Shown piece after piece: positions 28,291-34,848 of a DNA stretch of 64,000 nt. Source of the DNA: an uncultured bacterium (GTDB lineage Bacteria > Chlamydiota > Chlamydiia > Chlamydiales > SM23-39). Under the pieces are notes generated by a model. That model made no database searches, had not been told where the DNA came from, and saw only the letters and a program-made list of their open reading frames with translations. Numbering within the stretch: the first letter of the stretch is position 1; each line of letters opens with the position of its first letter. The stretch is from NCBI GenBank assembly GCA_963716985.1, contig OY970323.1, forward strand, positions 512,001 through 576,000. Reading direction: 5' to 3'. Made by a program: the position numbers and the translations under genes.

Positions 28291-29667
28291 TTAAGGTTGG
28301 GACTGATGATTGAACCATGCAGGTAGCGCAAGAAGTAGCGAACCACATGCTACGCCAACCAGGACCGCTATCTTTAGACATGTCCTTAGACCTTCTGAGT
28401 TCGGCCTACGGCCAACCACCTGTCGTTCCAAAGATTCTCGATGTCTTCTTATTGCTTCATCTGCTTCACGTCGTTCTGTTTCTCTACGTAGATGATCGGC
28501 GATTTGGTTATGACCAGTTGCGAGAGCAATTCTAATAGCTAAACTTCGGTCATCCTCCGAAATAGGCCCATCAAGTAGAAAGCAAATCTTAACATAGTCA
28601 TCTAGCCCGGCAGCGATTTGAACAGACACGCCACGATCACGAGCACGACCTGCTAATATGCGATCGACAACGGCTCGAGCCAGCTCGGAAATAACAGTAC
28701 CATCTGCCAGTAGACGATCGACGACGTTTTGATGGCCATGTTCGGAAGCTGCTCTAACAGCTTGGACTCGAGCAAACTCGGGAATAACAGCACCATCTGC
28801 CAATAGGCGCTCGACGACGTTTAGGTGGCCATGGAAGGCAGCTGCTTCAACAGCGTCGTTTCGAGCAAACTCGGGAATAACAGCACCATCTGCCAGTAGG
28901 CACTCGACGATGTTTAAATAGCCGTTGCTAGCAGCTGTTTCAACGGCTTCGCCTCGAGCCGTCTCGGAAATAACAGCACCATCTGCCAATAGACGATTGA
29001 TGGTACCCACATGACCATTTATCGCAGCTGCTATAACAGCATAGTCTCGAAACTTATCCTGAATGGTAACGCCCTCTGCCAATAGACAATTGACGATAGC
29101 TACATGACCATTTTTAGCAGCTTCTAAAAAAGCGATGCTTCGATCAAGTTTGGAAATGGTTCCATCGCGTAGCAATCGAGAAACGATGTCTGTATGGCCA
29201 CGTTGAGCCGATTCTCTAACTGCTACTCCTCGAGCATTTCTGGAAAGGATGCGATGACCACATAAGAGCCGACCGGCGGCAAGCAAATCGTTTTCATCAT
29301 ACCCAGGAGTTAAAAGTCTTCGGACTTCAAGTAAATCGTGCAGGCCATGACCGCATTTGAGGATATGGTCGACGCCAAAGACTCCAAGCAAATTTCCCAA
29401 ACATGCTGCCTTGATCACTTCTCTTTCTGTCTCAGGAGTTGCAAGCAAAACTTCAATATTTCGACGGCAAAGCGGACAGGGTATACGCCCTTGGCCTTGG
29501 TTTGCTTTTAGCAATGCTTCTAAGCACTTTTGATGAAGAAAATGAGGGAGGCTTTGTCTAGGGTGGAGATCGACTCGGTTTTTCGGATTGGATATATCTT
29601 TAAAACATATCGGACATTTCGGTAAGCCATCAGATGATTGAAGTGTTTTGGTGGTCATATGATTCAT
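28291..29667 (-). CDS. RING-finger plus ankyrin-repeat protein with a C-terminal TM segment (candidate effector)
   Basis: CPIC..H..HFLHQKC..CPLC; repeats AAxNGHxxIVxxLLADGA; hydrophobic tail. Confidence 0.85.
   Translation of the reverse strand: MNHMTTKTLQSSDGLPKCPICFKDISNPKNRVDLHPRQSLPHFLHQKCLEALLKANQGQGRIPCPLCRRNIEVLLATPETEREVIKAACLGNLLGVFGVDHILKCGHGLHDLLEVRRLLTPGYDENDLLAAGRLLCGHRILSRNARGVAVRESAQRGHTDIVSRLLRDGTISKLDRSIAFLEAAKNGHVAIVNCLLAEGVTIQDKFRDYAVIAAAINGHVGTINRLLADGAVISETARGEAVETAASNGYLNIVECLLADGAVIPEFARNDAVEAAAFHGHLNVVERLLADGAVIPEFARVQAVRAASEHGHQNVVDRLLADGTVISELARAVVDRILAGRARDRGVSVQIAAGLDDYVKICFLLDGPISEDDRSLAIRIALATGHNQIADHLRRETERREADEAIRRHRESLERQVVGRRPNSEGLRTCLKIAVLVGVACGSLLLALPAWFNHQSQP
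28680..29240 (-). repeat. 93-bp (31-aa) tandem ankyrin-like repeats
   Basis: AACAG(C/T)ACCATCTGCCA recurs at 28693, 28786, 28879 and 28972. Confidence 0.85.
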
Positions 29668-29952: not shown

Positions 29953-31965
29953 ATGAAAAATCCAATGAAATATTCCCACCTGTTCGTAAGCTCTCTTCTC
30001 CTCTGTTCCTTTCCCAGTTTCATGGCGTATCCTCAGGAGATCAGTGAGCGGATATTCCCCATTCCCTCAATCAATGGTCATTTAAGTCCATTTATCCAGA
30101 GATTATTCATGGAGAACCATGTTCTTTCCTATGACGCGATTTTAGAACTTATTGAACAGATAGAAAATGATGAACTGGACGAATCCTGTACGCCGGAAGA
30201 TTGGAATCAGATCTGCCATTTTTTGGCCTATTTAGCTCGGCAGGGAACGATGCCCAGCGCCACAGAAGAAGAAAAGGCAGAGCTTGAGAGGGACATTGAG
30301 GAACTGCTCAATTCCTGCAAGGAAGTGGAGCGCAGCTCTTATTTTCTGGAATCAAAAGAATATGCTGTTGTTCCTGCCGTCTACTCCTACGAAGGCGACC
30401 ATGCAGAGCTTTGCAAAAGCTGGATCCATAAGCAGTGGAATCATACCAAACATTTCATCAAACATCATAAAGTAGCTGTGATCGTAGGCTCTGTGCTGGT
30501 CGTTGCCGCTGTAGTTGTCGTTACTACTGTGGTCGTTGCATCTTCAACTGCAGCAGCCGCAACTGCCGCTGCAGCTGCCAAGAACTCTAAATCTAAAGAA
30601 TCGCCAAAGACGGCCTTTGGAGATGAAAGCTCTTGCGATGCTTCTCTATCGAATCAGGAGGAAACTCTTGAGGCCGTTGAAAATCAGGTTTCTGCTCTGA
30701 AGACAATTGCTGATAAAAATGATTTTTTGGCCTCGAATGACCCAAAGAGCGATCTATTCGATAAAGACAATGCCCGGACCGTTGGTTCAGCCCTGACCCA
30801 TGAAACGATCGATTCAGTTGCTTTTAGCGCTCCATCAACTCCTCTCTCGTCAGAAGCCTTGAATCTGACGATTGCTACAGGACATGGAGTTGCCGACCTA
30901 GCTTTTTCAACAGAACAATCGGTTCACCATGTGAACCAAGAACCTTCTTTGGATGATCTCGAAAGTCGTTTGCAAAAAAATGTAGTCTATTGCCAGGGAG
31001 AACAAGCGCTTAAAACTGGAAATTACGAACAGGCAATCGACCATTTTAGTCAAGCGATTGCCGCAGATCCCCAAAACAACGAAGCCTATTTGCAACGGGC
31101 TGTAGCGTATATGGAGCTGGAAGAATACGAGCATTCCCTAAGCGATTATAGCACCTATTCGGCACAGGAAACGCTTCCTTCGAAAGACACTTTATCGAAT
31201 ACTGTCGATTTTGGCGTTGGCTTTGCGAAGGGCTTGCCCAAAGGAGTTATGGAATCGGGCCACCAATTGGCCGCATTTGCATCTGAGCTGGTTTCTCATC
31301 CAATCGATACCGGTAATAATGTATGCAGAGCATTTACAAGTCTTGCAAAACTTGCCCTTTCTCAGGAATGGGCGACTTTAAGCCAGTCGCTAGCTCCCGA
31401 GGTGTGTCAGCTTATCAATGAGTGGAACCTACTCTCATCTCAGCAGCAGGGAGAGCGTTCCGGATACATCTTTGCCAAATATGGCGGAGATATTTTGATC
31501 CCCGGCGCTGCGGCCAAAGTGCTCTCGAAGGGCATCGAAGGAGCCAAGGAGATCGCCCTTGCTGCCAAAAATTTAGAAACCGCAGAACAAACACTTGCTT
31601 TGGAAGCACTTTCGCAGTCTGCGAAAAACTCTCTTCCTTTTGCAAAGAGTCCTTTCGCAAATTCAATCAGTGAATCAGAAAATAGAGCTTTTAGGGCTGA
31701 AACCAATAGAAAAAGACATGCAAAATTTTTACAAGATTATTTTGAAAAACCGACTAAAGAAATTCAAAAAGGCATCGTAAGCTATGAAAAACAAATTGCT
31801 ATTCATCAAGAAAAAATCTCAAACCCATCAAAGTATATTAAAAACTGGCATGAATTAGACCCAAGAAAACAGGAGGCATTAATCAATAAGATCTGGCCTG
31901 CTGAGATACAGCTCTATACGGAACAGAGAGACATTCTTCAATTTATTTTAAACCAAAGGGAATAG
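29953..31965 (+). CDS. Polymorphic toxin: signal peptide, hydrophobic segment, TPRs, conserved pre-toxin region and variable C-terminal domain
   Basis: TPRs (GNYEQAIDHFSQAIAADPQNNEAYLQRA); region 31200-31622 is repeated downstream with different C-termini. Confidence 0.8.
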   Translation: MKNPMKYSHLFVSSLLLCSFPSFMAYPQEISERIFPIPSINGHLSPFIQRLFMENHVLSYDAILELIEQIENDELDESCTPEDWNQICHFLAYLARQGTMPSATEEEKAELERDIEELLNSCKEVERSSYFLESKEYAVVPAVYSYEGDHAELCKSWIHKQWNHTKHFIKHHKVAVIVGSVLVVAAVVVVTTVVVASSTAAAATAAAAAKNSKSKESPKTAFGDESSCDASLSNQEETLEAVENQVSALKTIADKNDFLASNDPKSDLFDKDNARTVGSALTHETIDSVAFSAPSTPLSSEALNLTIATGHGVADLAFSTEQSVHHVNQEPSLDDLESRLQKNVVYCQGEQALKTGNYEQAIDHFSQAIAADPQNNEAYLQRAVAYMELEEYEHSLSDYSTYSAQETLPSKDTLSNTVDFGVGFAKGLPKGVMESGHQLAAFASELVSHPIDTGNNVCRAFTSLAKLALSQEWATLSQSLAPEVCQLINEWNLLSSQQQGERSGYIFAKYGGDILIPGAAAKVLSKGIEGAKEIALAAKNLETAEQTLALEALSQSAKNSLPFAKSPFANSISESENRAFRAETNRKRHAKFLQDYFEKPTKEIQKGIVSYEKQIAIHQEKISNPSKYIKNWHELDPRKQEALINKIWPAEIQLYTEQRDILQFILNQRE

Positions 31966-31975
31966 TTTTAAATTT

Positions 31976-32215
31976 ATGAATGATAAAAAATTTGAGCATT
32001 ACATAAAAGATCTGGGGGTCTTAATTAAAGAAAAAGCGCGAGAAGCGAAGATTAATGAAGTCAATTCTGATGCTAAAAATGCTGATTATAATATAGGGTA
32101 CCTTATGGCTTTCCATGAAATAATTGTCCTTATGAAGCATCAGGCAATGGTTTTCAATATTGAACAAGAAGATATTGGTTTGGCTGATATAAATGCAGAA
32201 ACAGATTTGTTATAA
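31976..32215 (+). CDS. Putative cognate immunity protein 1
   Basis: Small, acidic, AT-rich ORF starting 10 nt after the toxin stop codon. Confidence 0.7.
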   Translation: MNDKKFEHYIKDLGVLIKEKAREAKINEVNSDAKNADYNIGYLMAFHEIIVLMKHQAMVFNIEQEDIGLADINAETDLL

Positions 32216-32216
32216 G

Positions 32217-32291
32217 CTCGACTTTGCAACTTTTTGCTGCATAAATCATGCCGTCTGAAGTACTCGTTTCACTATAGCCCGTCCATTCCGT
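32217..32291 (-). mobile_element. IS701-like right-end remnant
   Basis: CTCGACTTTGCAACTTTTTGC matches the reverse complement of the IS701 end at 3250-3270 at 20/21 positions. Confidence 0.7.
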
Positions 32292-32325
32292 TACTGTCGA
32301 TTTTGGCGTTGGCTTTGCCAAAGGC

Positions 32326-33198
32326 TTGCCCAAAGGAGTTATGGAATCGGGCCACCAATTGGCCACATTTGCATCTGAGCTGGTTTCTCATCCAATCGAT
32401 ATCGGTAATAATGTATGCAGAGCATTTACAAGTCTTGCAAAACTTGCCCTTTCTCAGGAATGGGCGACTTTAAGTCAGTCGCTGGCACCCGAAGTATGTC
32501 AGCTTGTCAATGAGTGGAACCTACTTTCATCTCAGCGGCAGGGAGAGCGTTCCGGATACATCGTTGCCAAATATGGCGGAGATATTTTGATCCCCGGCGC
32601 TGCGGCCAAAGTGCTCTCGAAAGGCATCGAAGGAGCCAAGGAGATCGCCCTTGCTGCCAAAAATTTAGAAACCGCAGAACAAACACTTGCTCTGGAAGCA
32701 CTCTCTCAATCTGCCCGGAGTTCTACAGCCTTTGCTGAAATGTCGACGCAATTAAGTACTGAATCTGAGAAGATCGTAATCACGACGAAGGGGGAGAAAT
32801 TTCTTCGAGAAAATGGTCTTTGGGAATCGTTTCAGAAATGTAGAAGGGCAGAAAAGTTTCTTGAACCATTTCAGGGCCAATATTTACCTGAAATTCGCGT
32901 GAGGGATTTGATTCATGAAGCAGGGATGCCAACGTTCCCTCGTCCTCAAGGAATACCGAATAATTTTCGAATTACATTTTCAGACAAAGGTGCTGGAATG
33001 AAATATGTGCATCCGAATGATGAAGGAACTTATGTAAGAGTCATGCCAGGGAAATCTCATAGTCAGTTTCCACATCAACAAAAACCTTATGTGGTTCGAA
33101 TGAAGAATGGTCAGAATTTAGATAAATTAGGTAATAATGTATCTCAGGGTGCTATTGAGGCGCATATTCCATTAGATGAATTTTTTTATATAGAGTAA
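32326..33198 (+). CDS. Orphan toxin cassette 1 (pre-toxin homology plus a different C-terminal domain, possible RNase)
   Basis: DNA homology to 31200-31622 starts near 32292; C-terminus YVHP..VRVMPGK..QQKPYV..LDKLGN..EAHIPL. Confidence 0.8.
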   Translation: MPKGVMESGHQLATFASELVSHPIDIGNNVCRAFTSLAKLALSQEWATLSQSLAPEVCQLVNEWNLLSSQRQGERSGYIVAKYGGDILIPGAAAKVLSKGIEGAKEIALAAKNLETAEQTLALEALSQSARSSTAFAEMSTQLSTESEKIVITTKGEKFLRENGLWESFQKCRRAEKFLEPFQGQYLPEIRVRDLIHEAGMPTFPRPQGIPNNFRITFSDKGAGMKYVHPNDEGTYVRVMPGKSHSQFPHQQKPYVVRMKNGQNLDKLGNNVSQGAIEAHIPLDEFFYIE

Positions 33199-33202
33199 TT
33201 AT

Positions 33203-33571
33203 ATGGGCATTGAAAATATTGATAAAAAAAGTTTTATGAAAGATTTTTTTGACAACATGGATTTGATTGCAGACAAAGAACAACAAAAAAGGGCATGGAT
33301 AATGGGGATCGGCCCTGTTTACTATGATTTTGATGAAGCAGTGATCATTTTTTTTGAGCACGTTGAAATTATTTTAAAAAATTATAGAGATTTTAATATT
33401 GATGAAAGTCAGCATCTTTTATTAAAATCATTTTCGAATGAGTTTAAAACTTTTTCTGATGAACATGATTGGCCACAAGACTTTATAGACACTCCCAAGT
33501 GGACGAAGATTACAGAAATGGCCAAAGAAGTGCTAGATGCTTTTCATTGGGAAAGGCATTCGAGCAAATAA
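33203..33571 (+). CDS. Putative immunity protein 2
   Basis: Directly follows the toxin; paralog of 34411-34782 (DKEQQKRAWI..DFDEAV..PKWTKITEMAKEVL). Confidence 0.72.
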   Translation: MGIENIDKKSFMKDFFDNMDLIADKEQQKRAWIMGIGPVYYDFDEAVIIFFEHVEIILKNYRDFNIDESQHLLLKSFSNEFKTFSDEHDWPQDFIDTPKWTKITEMAKEVLDAFHWERHSSK

Positions 33572-33793
33572 ACGTCCTTATAGTCAGTTTCCACGGCCAT
33601 TTTCATAATTCCGACATTTCGATCCCCCATAACGGCTCTCAAGCCGCTTGATTTTCCGGCGATTTACGAGCCCACAATTTCGCTCGGTTTCGCGGCCTGA
33701 CCGGTAGGTCGATGACTCCTAACAACCATCTTCTCACCTCAGCAGCAGGGAGAGCGTTCCGGATACATCTTTGCCAAATATGGCGGAGATATT

Positions 33794-34414
33794 TTGATCC
33801 CCGGCGCTGCGGCCAAAGTGCTGTCGAAGGGCATCGAAGGAGCCAAGGAGATCGCCCTTGCTGCCAAAAATTTAGAGACGGCAGAACAAACCCTTGCTCT
33901 GGAAGCCCTCTCTCAATCTGCCAGGAGTTCTACAACCTTTGCTGAAATGCCGACGCAATTGAGTGCTAAAGCCGAGGAGATAGTAATCACGACGAAGGGG
34001 GAGAAATTTCTTCGAGAAAATGGTCTTTGGGAATCATATGAAAAACATGAAAGAGCTCAGGAATTTTTAAAACCATATCGAAAACAATATCTTTCTGAAT
34101 CTCAAGTACGAGAACTGATTCACCAAACCGGAATGCCTACATTTCCAAGGCCACAGGGAATTCCAGACAATTTTCGTGTAAAAATCTCAGATCGAGGAGC
34201 TGGCATAGAATATGTGCATCCGACTAATGTACACATTCGCATCAGAGTTATGCCTGGGAAGCCTCACAGCTCTAATCTAGCTCAGCAACGTCCCTATGTA
34301 ATTTTTTCAAAACACGGAAAAGTGTTTGATAAAATAGGAAATATCGTGGATCCTTCGTCACCCGAAGCTCACATTCCATTGGATGAATTTAATCTTTCAA
34401 GGATTGGATTATGA
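33794..34414 (+). CDS. Orphan toxin cassette 2
   Basis: Homology starts near 33732; C-terminus is a diverged paralog of cassette 1. Confidence 0.8.
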   Translation: MIPGAAAKVLSKGIEGAKEIALAAKNLETAEQTLALEALSQSARSSTTFAEMPTQLSAKAEEIVITTKGEKFLRENGLWESYEKHERAQEFLKPYRKQYLSESQVRELIHQTGMPTFPRPQGIPDNFRVKISDRGAGIEYVHPTNVHIRIRVMPGKPHSSNLAQQRPYVIFSKHGKVFDKIGNIVDPSSPEAHIPLDEFNLSRIGL

Positions 34415-34782
34415 AAATTTCTGATGAAGATAAAAAACAGATATTACTAGGTTTTATTAAAATATTTACACGTATTTATGATAAGGAATATCAGCAAAGA
34501 GTTTGGATTGACGGAAGAGGGCCGGAATGCGACGATTTTGACGATACAGTGTGCGATTTTTTTGGAGTCGGCGACTCGATTATAGAAAATTATAAGGACT
34601 TCGGGATTACGGATCAGCAGAAGCATCTTTTGATGCGATTTCGTGATGAATTTAAAACTTTTTCTGATGAACATGATTGGCCCCAAGACTTTATAGACAC
34701 TCCCAAGTGGACAAAGATTACAGAAATGGCCAAAGAAGTGCTAGGTGCTTTTCATTGGGAAAAAAAATCTCCTAAGAATTAA
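34411..34782 (+). CDS. Putative immunity protein 3
   Basis: ATGA overlap with the toxin gene; paralog of immunity 2. Confidence 0.72.
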   Translation: MKISDEDKKQILLGFIKIFTRIYDKEYQQRVWIDGRGPECDDFDDTVCDFFGVGDSIIENYKDFGITDQQKHLLMRFRDEFKTFSDEHDWPQDFIDTPKWTKITEMAKEVLGAFHWEKKSPKN

Positions 34783-34821: not shown

Positions 34822-34848
34822 AAAAAAAGGAGATCGTTCGATCTCCTT
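34822..34848 (-). terminator. Rho-independent terminator of clpC
   Basis: Minus strand AAGGAGATCG-AA-CGATCTCC-TTTTTTT just after the stop codon. Confidence 0.75.

Follow-up and report, generated by a model that had tools for sequence, protein, structure and literature searches.

What kind of locus holds a gene for a 670-amino-acid (aa) protein followed by two partial copies of its coding sequence, each leading into an end of its own and a small gene? This arrangement occupies positions 29953 to 34782 of the window, a stretch of 64,000 nucleotides (nt) of contig OY970323.1 from an uncultured bacterium of the Chlamydiota, in which the open reading frame (ORF) listing gives six + strand ORFs between these positions. 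With a probability of about 0.8, we read it as a polymorphic toxin-immunity locus built on a Chlamydiota-type scaffold family, with stored ends that could be reloaded by recombination. The original prediction, made from the DNA letters, comprised an array with orphan cassettes, an undescribed carrier and a swap junction, and all three parts are supported by the analysis presented here.

The 670-aa product consists, in this order, of a signal-like N-terminus, a helical module, a transmembrane (TM) helix, a linker, TPR repeats, a pre-toxin domain and the C-terminal end CT-A; its database copy is 666 aa long and starts 4 codons later. The gene is followed by a small gene, ImmA, and by two orphan cassettes, each composed of pre-toxin sequence, a C-terminal domain (CT-B1 and CT-B2) and a further small gene (ImmB1 and ImmB2). 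The small genes are presumed to encode immunity proteins (Table 1).

Repeat architecture of the array

The repeats were located by a repeat finder and DNA alignment. In ungapped register, positions 31200-31623 and 32292-32715 are identical at 405 of 424 nt (95.5%), and positions 31435-31623 and 33734-33922 at 178 of 189 nt (94.2%), which bears out the predicted recurrence of the region 31200-31622 in two downstream copies. In the 100 nt beside the 424-nt repeat on each side, identity is at chance level (24/100 and 26/100). All three pre-toxin copies terminate in ...LALEALSQSA, and their G+C content is 0.49-0.54 vs. 0.31-0.40 in the C-termini and small genes. In-frame stop codons are located just 5' of the homology start in both orphan copies, which are therefore 5'-truncated cassettes.

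Three different C-termini had been expected behind these copies. The end of the full gene does differ from those of the orphans, whereas the two orphan ends are homologous to each other, with 63% aa identity between CT-B1 and CT-B2 and 101 of 111 nt still identical beyond the junction. ImmB1 and ImmB2 share 59% aa identity, and 118 of 129 aligned nt are identical in the second halves of their genes. The small coupled gene foreseen after each C-terminus was present in all three cases as a same-strand ORF (for spacing, see Table 1). Along the B cassettes, identity forms a mosaic, with 91% in the initial 111 nt of the toxin end, ~91% in the final 130 nt of the immunity gene, and ~62-69% between those stretches (33203-33571 vs. 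34411-34782; 32716-33198 vs. 33923-34414). Such a pattern would fit a diversified toxin-immunity interface or recombination between cassettes.

Could the downstream copies be remnants of tandem duplication, without a role in reloading and with the small ORFs as leftovers? The stop codons upstream of both orphans fit such decay, and both orphans are of one type, as duplication would give. Decay is nevertheless improbable, given that the C-terminal and immunity frames are intact in both cassettes (160 + 122 aa and 163 + 123 aa) and that the identity of 94-96% coincides exactly with the pre-toxin segment and drops to chance level next to it, which better fits maintained recombination substrates. 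The same layout, with other toxin types, recurs in three other genomes and, in the available text of Jamet et al. 2015 (PMC4287609), is described for silent mafB-CT cassettes.

Exchange of C-terminal ends across the family

A hidden Markov model (HMM) of the pre-toxin domain (aa 416-557) was run over six-frame ORFs of related loci and gave 61 junctions, namely, the three copies of the window and 58 elsewhere. Five junctions whose C-termini were cut by contig ends or stops (in loci L004, L026, L038, L055, and L078) were dropped, and the remaining 56 C-termini (at least 60 aa) were clustered by BLAST using the last 90 aa of each. They formed 11 clusters on one pre-toxin domain, and no single constant C-terminus was seen when the ends and downstream genes of the homologues were tabulated.

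Downstream ORFs, taken as those starting within -30 to +260 nt of the stop codon, formed 15 clusters, and pairing with the C-terminus was type specific. Type T1 (CT-B) was paired with I1 in 21/23 cases, the other two having no downstream ORF, and T2 (CT-A) with I2 in 13/14, the exception being a disrupted orphan in L053. The smaller types were paired likewise, T3 with I3 (5/6), T4 with I4 (2/4), T5 with I5 (2/2), and T6 with I6 (2/2). None of the multi-member downstream families was common to two toxin types, and the family of the downstream ORF tracked the C-terminal type, not the scaffold.

Kinship among the loci inflates these pair counts and overstates their independence, which tells against the reading proposed here, and a tree-based test of the types was made for this reason. 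A maximum-likelihood tree was built from 51 pre-toxin domains. It requires 26 changes of toxin type, where 9 would be the fewest possible and shuffled types need 27.2 on average; in 66 of 200 shuffles, the number was as low as on the tree. Well-supported sister pairs with near-identical pre-toxin domains and different types were found in L079/L080, in L042/L043, and between two copies in L053. The near-random scatter of types together with these pairs indicates that ends are swapped freely, each together with its downstream gene. Truncated, orphan-like copies downstream of full genes were present at loci of three other genomes (L040, L050, and L053), where the arrays carry other toxin types, and L077 contains two full genes of different types. 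The predicted reading as a toxin-immunity array with orphan cassettes is supported by these results. Variable C-termini, a type-matched downstream immunity gene and orphan cassettes, by which Zhang et al. 2012 recognize polymorphic toxins, were all found.

In the homologue alignment, conservation stops at [FL]ALE[AT]L.QSA and unrelated sequence lies beyond. The idea of LALEALSQSA as a swap junction stood in so far as conservation ends at L-x-L-E and residue E551 is invariant, but the swap point is not always identical; in many relatives, the junction is followed by an additional linker, 'ELGFTxxE..LKxxGxLE', and the position of the swap point thus varies among them.

The scaffold in front of the junction had been predicted to lack Rhs, FHA, LXG, PAAR, and Hint motifs. 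The Pfam scan of the 670-aa protein (E <= 1) gave TPR families and otherwise weak, sub-cut-off matches to unrelated families, with no match to RHS, TPS/FHA, VENN, LXG, PAAR/DUF4150, HINT, or DUF1020 (PF06255), and the NCBIfam scan gave nothing above cut-offs. An Atlas search with residues 28-215 reached a best score of 0.76, with nothing usable, and no description of the scaffold, the immunity families or an orphan array for chlamydiae was found in open-access papers and preprints. In none of these sources did the N-terminus match a described toxin carrier, as had been suspected. The helical module is the family's putative trafficking domain. It is separated from the TM helix by the basic stretch KSWIHKQWNHTKHFIKHHK. 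The Val-rich helix of 23 aa, the sole strongly hydrophobic segment of the protein, is kept in 12/12 aligned homologues, and hydrophobic windows including its Ala-rich tail span 31-41 aa (Kyte-Doolittle, 12 homologues). A lipoprotein leader was considered and rejected, as the Cys is not conserved among homologues.

A word-indexed search found 21 homologues of the 670-aa protein, with coverages of ~64-99% of the query, in most cases 72-87%; apart from the protein of the window itself, just two of them extend into its last ~100 aa. Scanning one genome per species yielded 76 related loci, nearly all titled as Chlamydiota-type metagenome genomes and a few merely as 'bacterium' or Verrucomicrobia. 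Among 40 relatives searched, the gene was present in 14/24 genomes of the same family, and CT-A alone occurred in 33/300 sampled genomes of the phylum, all in the same order. By these matches, the scaffold family appears large and was seen only in Chlamydiota-type genomes.

CT-B is carried by 65 longer proteins and CT-A by 16. A second scaffold with CT-A/CT-B ends has the leader, helical module, and TM helix and lacks the TPR and pre-toxin regions. An exhaustive search with CT-B1 gave 745 clusters at E <= 1e-3 (315 at <= 1e-10 and 81 at <= 1e-30); 150 of the proteins were listed, and for most of these the match extends to within ~10 residues of the C-terminus. Among 29 of the 150 listed carriers sampled in Pfam, 22 showed TPR and 7 nothing, and no known toxin-trafficking domain, LXG and PAAR included, was found in the 29.

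Table 1. Positions of the features of the array and of the CT-A-bearing Rhs protein (window coordinates unless a locus is named)
Feature	Position	Strand	Basis or remark
Full-length polymorphic toxin gene (candidate), 670 aa	29953..31965	+	ORF listing, homologue alignment
Sec-like signal peptide, aa 1-25 (cleavage between ...SFMA and YPQ)	29953..30027	+	Short h-region, conserved P-x-x-F-A in homologues; cleavage inferred
N-terminal helical module (SYDAILELxEQIENDEL...LCKSWxxKxW)	30028..30471	+	Conserved in homologue alignment
Single strongly hydrophobic TM helix, aa 174-196, then Ala-rich tail	30472..30540	+	Kyte-Doolittle peak 2.92
TPR repeats, ~aa 342-410	30976..31182	+	Pfam TPR_1 E 1.5e-8, TPR_2 E 1.9e-8
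Pre-toxin domain ending LALEALSQSA, shared with orphans	31198..31623	+	HMM of aa 416-557, 95.5% nt repeat
CT-A, presumed toxin domain, 113 aa	31624..31965	+	AlphaFold 2 helical hairpin; Rhs-tip relative
ImmA, presumed immunity protein for CT-A, 79 aa	31976..32215	+	10 nt past toxin gene stop
Orphan 1, 5'-truncated pre-toxin copy	32292..32715	+	Repeat match, upstream stop codons
290-aa frame (orphan 1 + CT-B1)	32326..33198	+	ORF listing
CT-B1, PT7-like C-terminal domain, 160 aa	32716..33198	+	AlphaFold 2 fold, profile match
ImmB1, presumed immunity protein for CT-B, 122 aa	33203..33571	+	Starts 4 nt after CT-B1 frame
Orphan 2, shorter 5'-truncated pre-toxin copy	33734..33922	+	Repeat match, upstream stop codons
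206-aa frame (orphan 2 + CT-B2)	33794..34414	+	ORF listing
CT-B2, second PT7-like C-terminal domain, 163 aa	33923..34414	+	Homology to CT-B1
ImmB2, presumed immunity protein, 123 aa	34411..34782	+	4-nt overlap with CT-B2 frame
Terminator-like palindrome at array end	34827..34848		Consensus scan alone; between ImmB2 and convergent Clp ATPase gene
Chlamydial Rhs/YD-repeat protein with CT-A end	L089 973-6868 (G013:C37)		Pfam and sequence match

The CT-A and CT-B ends and their partner genes

In a genome of the same family (G013), a relative of CT-A was found on a chlamydial Rhs protein of 1763 aa, which has RHS repeats (PF05593, E 1e-51), DUF6531, and the core end YYMPVYGRWLTPDPAGF. Its tip is 54% identical to CT-A (E 1e-36), and the gene after it is 58% identical to ImmA (E 1e-29) and is followed by an orphan Rhs core-end fragment. 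The shared CT-A/ImmA cassette indicates that Rhs arrays and the TPR scaffold draw on one cassette pool, and from its context in the Rhs protein CT-A is presumed to be a toxin end.

Complex prediction of CT-A residues 28-113 with ImmA gave a score of 0.45, whereas 0.01 was the highest value among 3 controls; at least 71% of the contacts are common to the runs, and the partner has a predicted local distance difference test (pLDDT) value of at least 88. In the calibration, the score mark was reached by 116/157 solved complexes and 2/215 mismatched pairs, and at 0.60 or under lay 18/157 solved complexes plus both mismatches that passed. The predicted complex weakly supports binding of ImmA to CT-A. 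Tandem fusions of two ImmA units (177-179 aa) were observed behind a single CT-A at L006 6661-7194, L008 7082-7621, and L019 7070-7603.

The AlphaFold 2 (AF2) model of CT-A (mean pLDDT 82) is a helical hairpin, and the domain has the strongly conserved polar face KEIQKGI.S.EKQI..H..KI.NP. Pfam gave no match at E <= 10, nor did a per-member scan of 13 CT-A sequences. Against the PDB, no usable match was obtained by sequence, by profile (best E 0.32), or with Foldseek (best E 1.1), and a HEPN-like Rx4-6H motif was looked for by eye and not found. The wide VIA-align search returned 14 chains with Z >= 8, all of them generic helical hairpins within one Z unit, and because these matches are nearly equal no family can be named for CT-A. 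Assignment to Ntox28 was discarded, as its Atlas row (0.76) lies below the usable level; the other rows were unnamed clusters.

CT-B1 was modeled by AF2 (mean pLDDT 90) as three helices followed by a small beta-sheet core. Its sole notable Foldseek match in the PDB was 8OWU chain C, with E 7e-3, a TM-score of 0.71 on the target, and probability 1.00. A second aligner superposed 73 of 76 residues of 8owu_C at a root mean square deviation of 2.5 and 25% identity with Z 7.5, a value below that aligner's caution line of 8; the next structural match had Z 3.1. The profile of 18 short CT-B sequences likewise had 8owu_B as its top PDB match (E 0.0052). The part superposing on PT7 comprises residues 73-153, and CT-B and PT7 have in common the C-terminal motif GNIV..SP[DE]AHIP; in the sequence alignment, the common His sits in its AHIP part (the catalytic residues of PT7 are Asp37 and His47). 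By these comparisons, the CT-B end folds like PT7 and is probably a DNase toxin.

According to the available text of its description, PT7 of Bacillus cereus is a Mg-dependent, non-specific endo-DNase that was solved with its immunity protein, is toxic to E. coli and yeast, is found on LXG proteins of Firmicutes and Proteobacteria, and has a fold described as new (10.1101/2021.10.19.465003). Like PT7 with PIM7, CT-B forms a cassette at the C-terminus and is followed by a presumed immunity gene. Unlike PT7, whose carriers are of the LXG type of the type VII secretion system (T7SS), CT-B sits on a Sec/TPR scaffold and has an extra three-helix N-terminal subdomain in the AF2 model. All 18 of 18 members of the ImmB family match DUF7945 weakly, with a best E of 3e-5 that is below cut-off, and ImmB also matches the NCBIfam 'SCO4402 family' below its cut-off.

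Further ends occur on the same modules. A paralog in the own genome (G000:C1:1317042-1318970, L004 601-2529) has a leader, an unrelated N-terminal domain, TPR, and the same pre-toxin domain, and lacks the TM helix. It carries an Ntox50 RNase end (frame given as 1317942-1318574) matching positions 3-92 of 92 with E 1.4e-22 when the stop is read as X; a single in-frame TAG lies inside this domain, and no obvious immunity gene follows. A DUF4258 end was found on the same pre-toxin module (26.3 bits vs. a cut-off of 25), and Pfam gave nothing beyond DUF4258 for the other C-terminal types and the non-TPR scaffold proteins. Toxicity of the C-terminal domains and export of the proteins are suggested indirectly, by the PT7-like fold, Ntox50, DUF4258, and the presence of CT-A on an Rhs protein.

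Additional C-terminal types without a Pfam match were seen on the same N-terminal module (L065-L067, L066 2091-3695, and L040 6925-7302). One further end carries GHKGQSHWHRYNP...SPESHLYP and another KHIFR...GHLPDT..NRQLLL...IRNGG.N, motifs that look like nuclease type.

Relation to known systems and possible targets

The closest analogue of the layout is found in the class 3 MafB/MafI islands of Neisseria. In the available text of Jamet et al. 2015 (PMC4287609), these combine a signal peptide with a genus-restricted N-terminal domain, and their start-less downstream C-terminal cassettes keep a short conserved motif and have one immunity gene each. The array shares with MafB, as far as that account goes, the signal peptide, a lineage-restricted N-terminal domain, a small immunity gene per cassette, and secretion that would start with Sec. 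Unlike MafB, the chlamydial scaffold has no DUF1020, possesses in addition a TM helix, TPR, and a pre-toxin domain of 140 aa, shows no mafA-like partner gene, and belongs to a different phylum with an intracellular lifestyle.

Like CdiA-CT/CdiI and Rhs-CT/RhsI, as outlined in the accessible text of PMC3482391, the locus combines a constant part with a variable toxin beyond a junction motif and with a cognate immunity gene, and, as in CdiA/Rhs arrays, its 5'-truncated orphans share junction-proximal sequence. In contrast to CdiA, the window gene has no TPS domain, FHA repeats, or VENN/PT-VENN motif in Pfam; it differs from Rhs in having no RHS repeats, whereas the CT-A-bearing Rhs protein has both repeats and a PxxxxDPxGL core end; and unlike LXG/T7SS toxins and PAAR toxins of type VI secretion systems (T6SS), it has no LXG or PAAR/DUF4150 domain. 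Because the membership features of CdiA, Rhs, MafB, LXG, and PAAR are absent, the scaffold is regarded as a separate carrier class within a known kind of system.

In the operation proposed here, the scaffold would be Sec-targeted, with its last 113 aa as the toxin and a disordered linker between TM helix and TPR, and ImmA would neutralize CT-A in the producer. The two downstream cassettes would be promoterless silent stores, each with its own immunity gene, and the ~95% identical pre-toxin repeats (189-424 nt) would act as substrates for homologous recombination, a crossover fusing the scaffold to CT-B1 or CT-B2 with the matching immunity gene kept. Recombination with orphans is known from Rhs of Salmonella. 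Protection against B-type toxins of neighbors would come from the orphan immunity genes, which are intact. The target is most likely competing chlamydiae or other bacteria sharing the host cell, and host cells are possible too.

Several further points count against reading the locus in this way. For CT-A, neither a fold nor a family could be recognized, which leaves its activity to guesswork. The catalytic Asp37 of PT7 faces an invariant Met of CT-B in the HMM alignment, and for this reason conservation of the active site cannot be claimed. Toxicity, neutralization, Sec export with subsequent release or presentation, and the target are steps that we infer; the orphans have no proven route to expression; and the gene was not found in the sole same-genus genome searched (99% complete). 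Metagenome contigs over the array came from soil and peat, were short and of low depth, and covered it in part. One contig of 484 nt (run X4, peat metagenome, depth 6.2) links positions 33594-33823 in register with positions 31525-31778, 53 nt being compatible with either side, so that the unique upstream flank of orphan 2 is joined to CT-A. The joint could be a recombinant, a duplication, or an excised circle, and equally an assembler path switch, and is taken as no more than a hint.

Topology adds a last point of this kind. With a cleaved leader and a TM helix acting as a stop-transfer segment, the protein would be N-out and C-in, and the toxin end would stay cytoplasmic. This would suit a cis-acting membrane toxin-antitoxin or abortive infection system, in which stress or phage attack would free a tethered cytoplasmic toxin end from its antidote. 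The close coupling or overlap of the genes fits such a system, and DUF4258, a member of the RelE-like toxin clan, would also be at home there. The charges flanking the helix are +5/-1 on the N side and +4/-7 on the C side, however, and under the positive-inside rule they suggest a C-out orientation, with the C-terminal part outside the cytoplasm. The paralog with TPR and pre-toxin domain behind a leader and without a TM helix likewise suggests work outside the cytoplasm, and neither exchangeable ends with orphan copies nor a cassette in common with Rhs belong to the features of toxin-antitoxin systems. A cis-acting system is considered very improbable.

A different target is implied if the proteins are effectors directed at the host, either type III-secreted like Inc proteins or delivered by Sec and vesicles as a membrane scaffold, with the small genes serving as self-protection factors or chaperones. 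The lineage looks intracellular, and a eukaryote-like RING-ankyrin protein adjoins the array. Inc proteins are type III-secreted and have a bilobed hydrophobic domain of ~40-60 aa, which the 31-41-aa hydrophobic span of the 12 homologues approaches. The TPR region matches SycD/LcrH-type chaperones weakly and below threshold (NCBIfam, E 1e-4), yet the downstream family goes with the type of C-terminal end rather than with the N-terminus, to which a secretion chaperone would be expected to bind. As far as the available texts go, PT7 also kills yeast (10.1101/2021.10.19.465003), and the toxins of intracellular bacteria are argued to be mostly host-aimed (Zhang et al. 2012, PMC3482391). In contrast, Ntox50, DUF4258, and PT7 are typical interbacterial nuclease ends, the CT-A/ImmA cassette is common to an Rhs protein, and the intactness of the orphan immunity genes is best understood as a defense against incoming toxins. 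Host-directed effectors are judged unlikely, although they carry appreciable weight.

The available text of Zhang et al. 2012 (PMC3482391) names TPR as one of the repeat types of Sec-exported toxins and counts chlamydiae with the phyla that have Ntox50, and members of the scaffold family may already figure in its tables. Intracellular bacteria, e.g., Waddlia, are described there as having many toxins and hardly any immunity genes, with the conclusion that they probably do not fight their own kind. In contrast to that census, the present locus belongs to a widespread Chlamydiota family with every genomic hallmark of fighting its own kind. New are the carrier, one presumed toxin domain (CT-A), two or more immunity families, and the host range of the PT7 fold. 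As a tentative generalization, environmental chlamydiae could possess their own phylum-specific delivery scaffold, with reloadable nuclease ends and stockpiled immunity genes, directed against other chlamydiae or co-resident bacteria within host cells that they share. If this is true, strain-versus-strain warfare would be a normal part of obligate intracellular life, and a new route of export or presentation and at least one new toxin fold (CT-A) would be involved. The family could serve to study how endosymbionts of amoebae and other hosts compete.

No CdiB or T6SS gene was seen beside the array in the ORF listing, where its neighbors are the genes for the RING-ankyrin protein, a Clp ATPase, and a helix-turn-helix protein. 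The RING-ankyrin protein of 458 aa is encoded directly upstream of the toxin gene on the - strand (28291-29667) and has an N-terminal zf-RING_2 domain (E 5e-5), Ank_2 (E 3e-16), and a hydrophobic C-terminal tail; by its domains, it looks like a eukaryote-like E3-ligase effector. Its gene shows a 93-nt tandem periodicity (repeat family D2).

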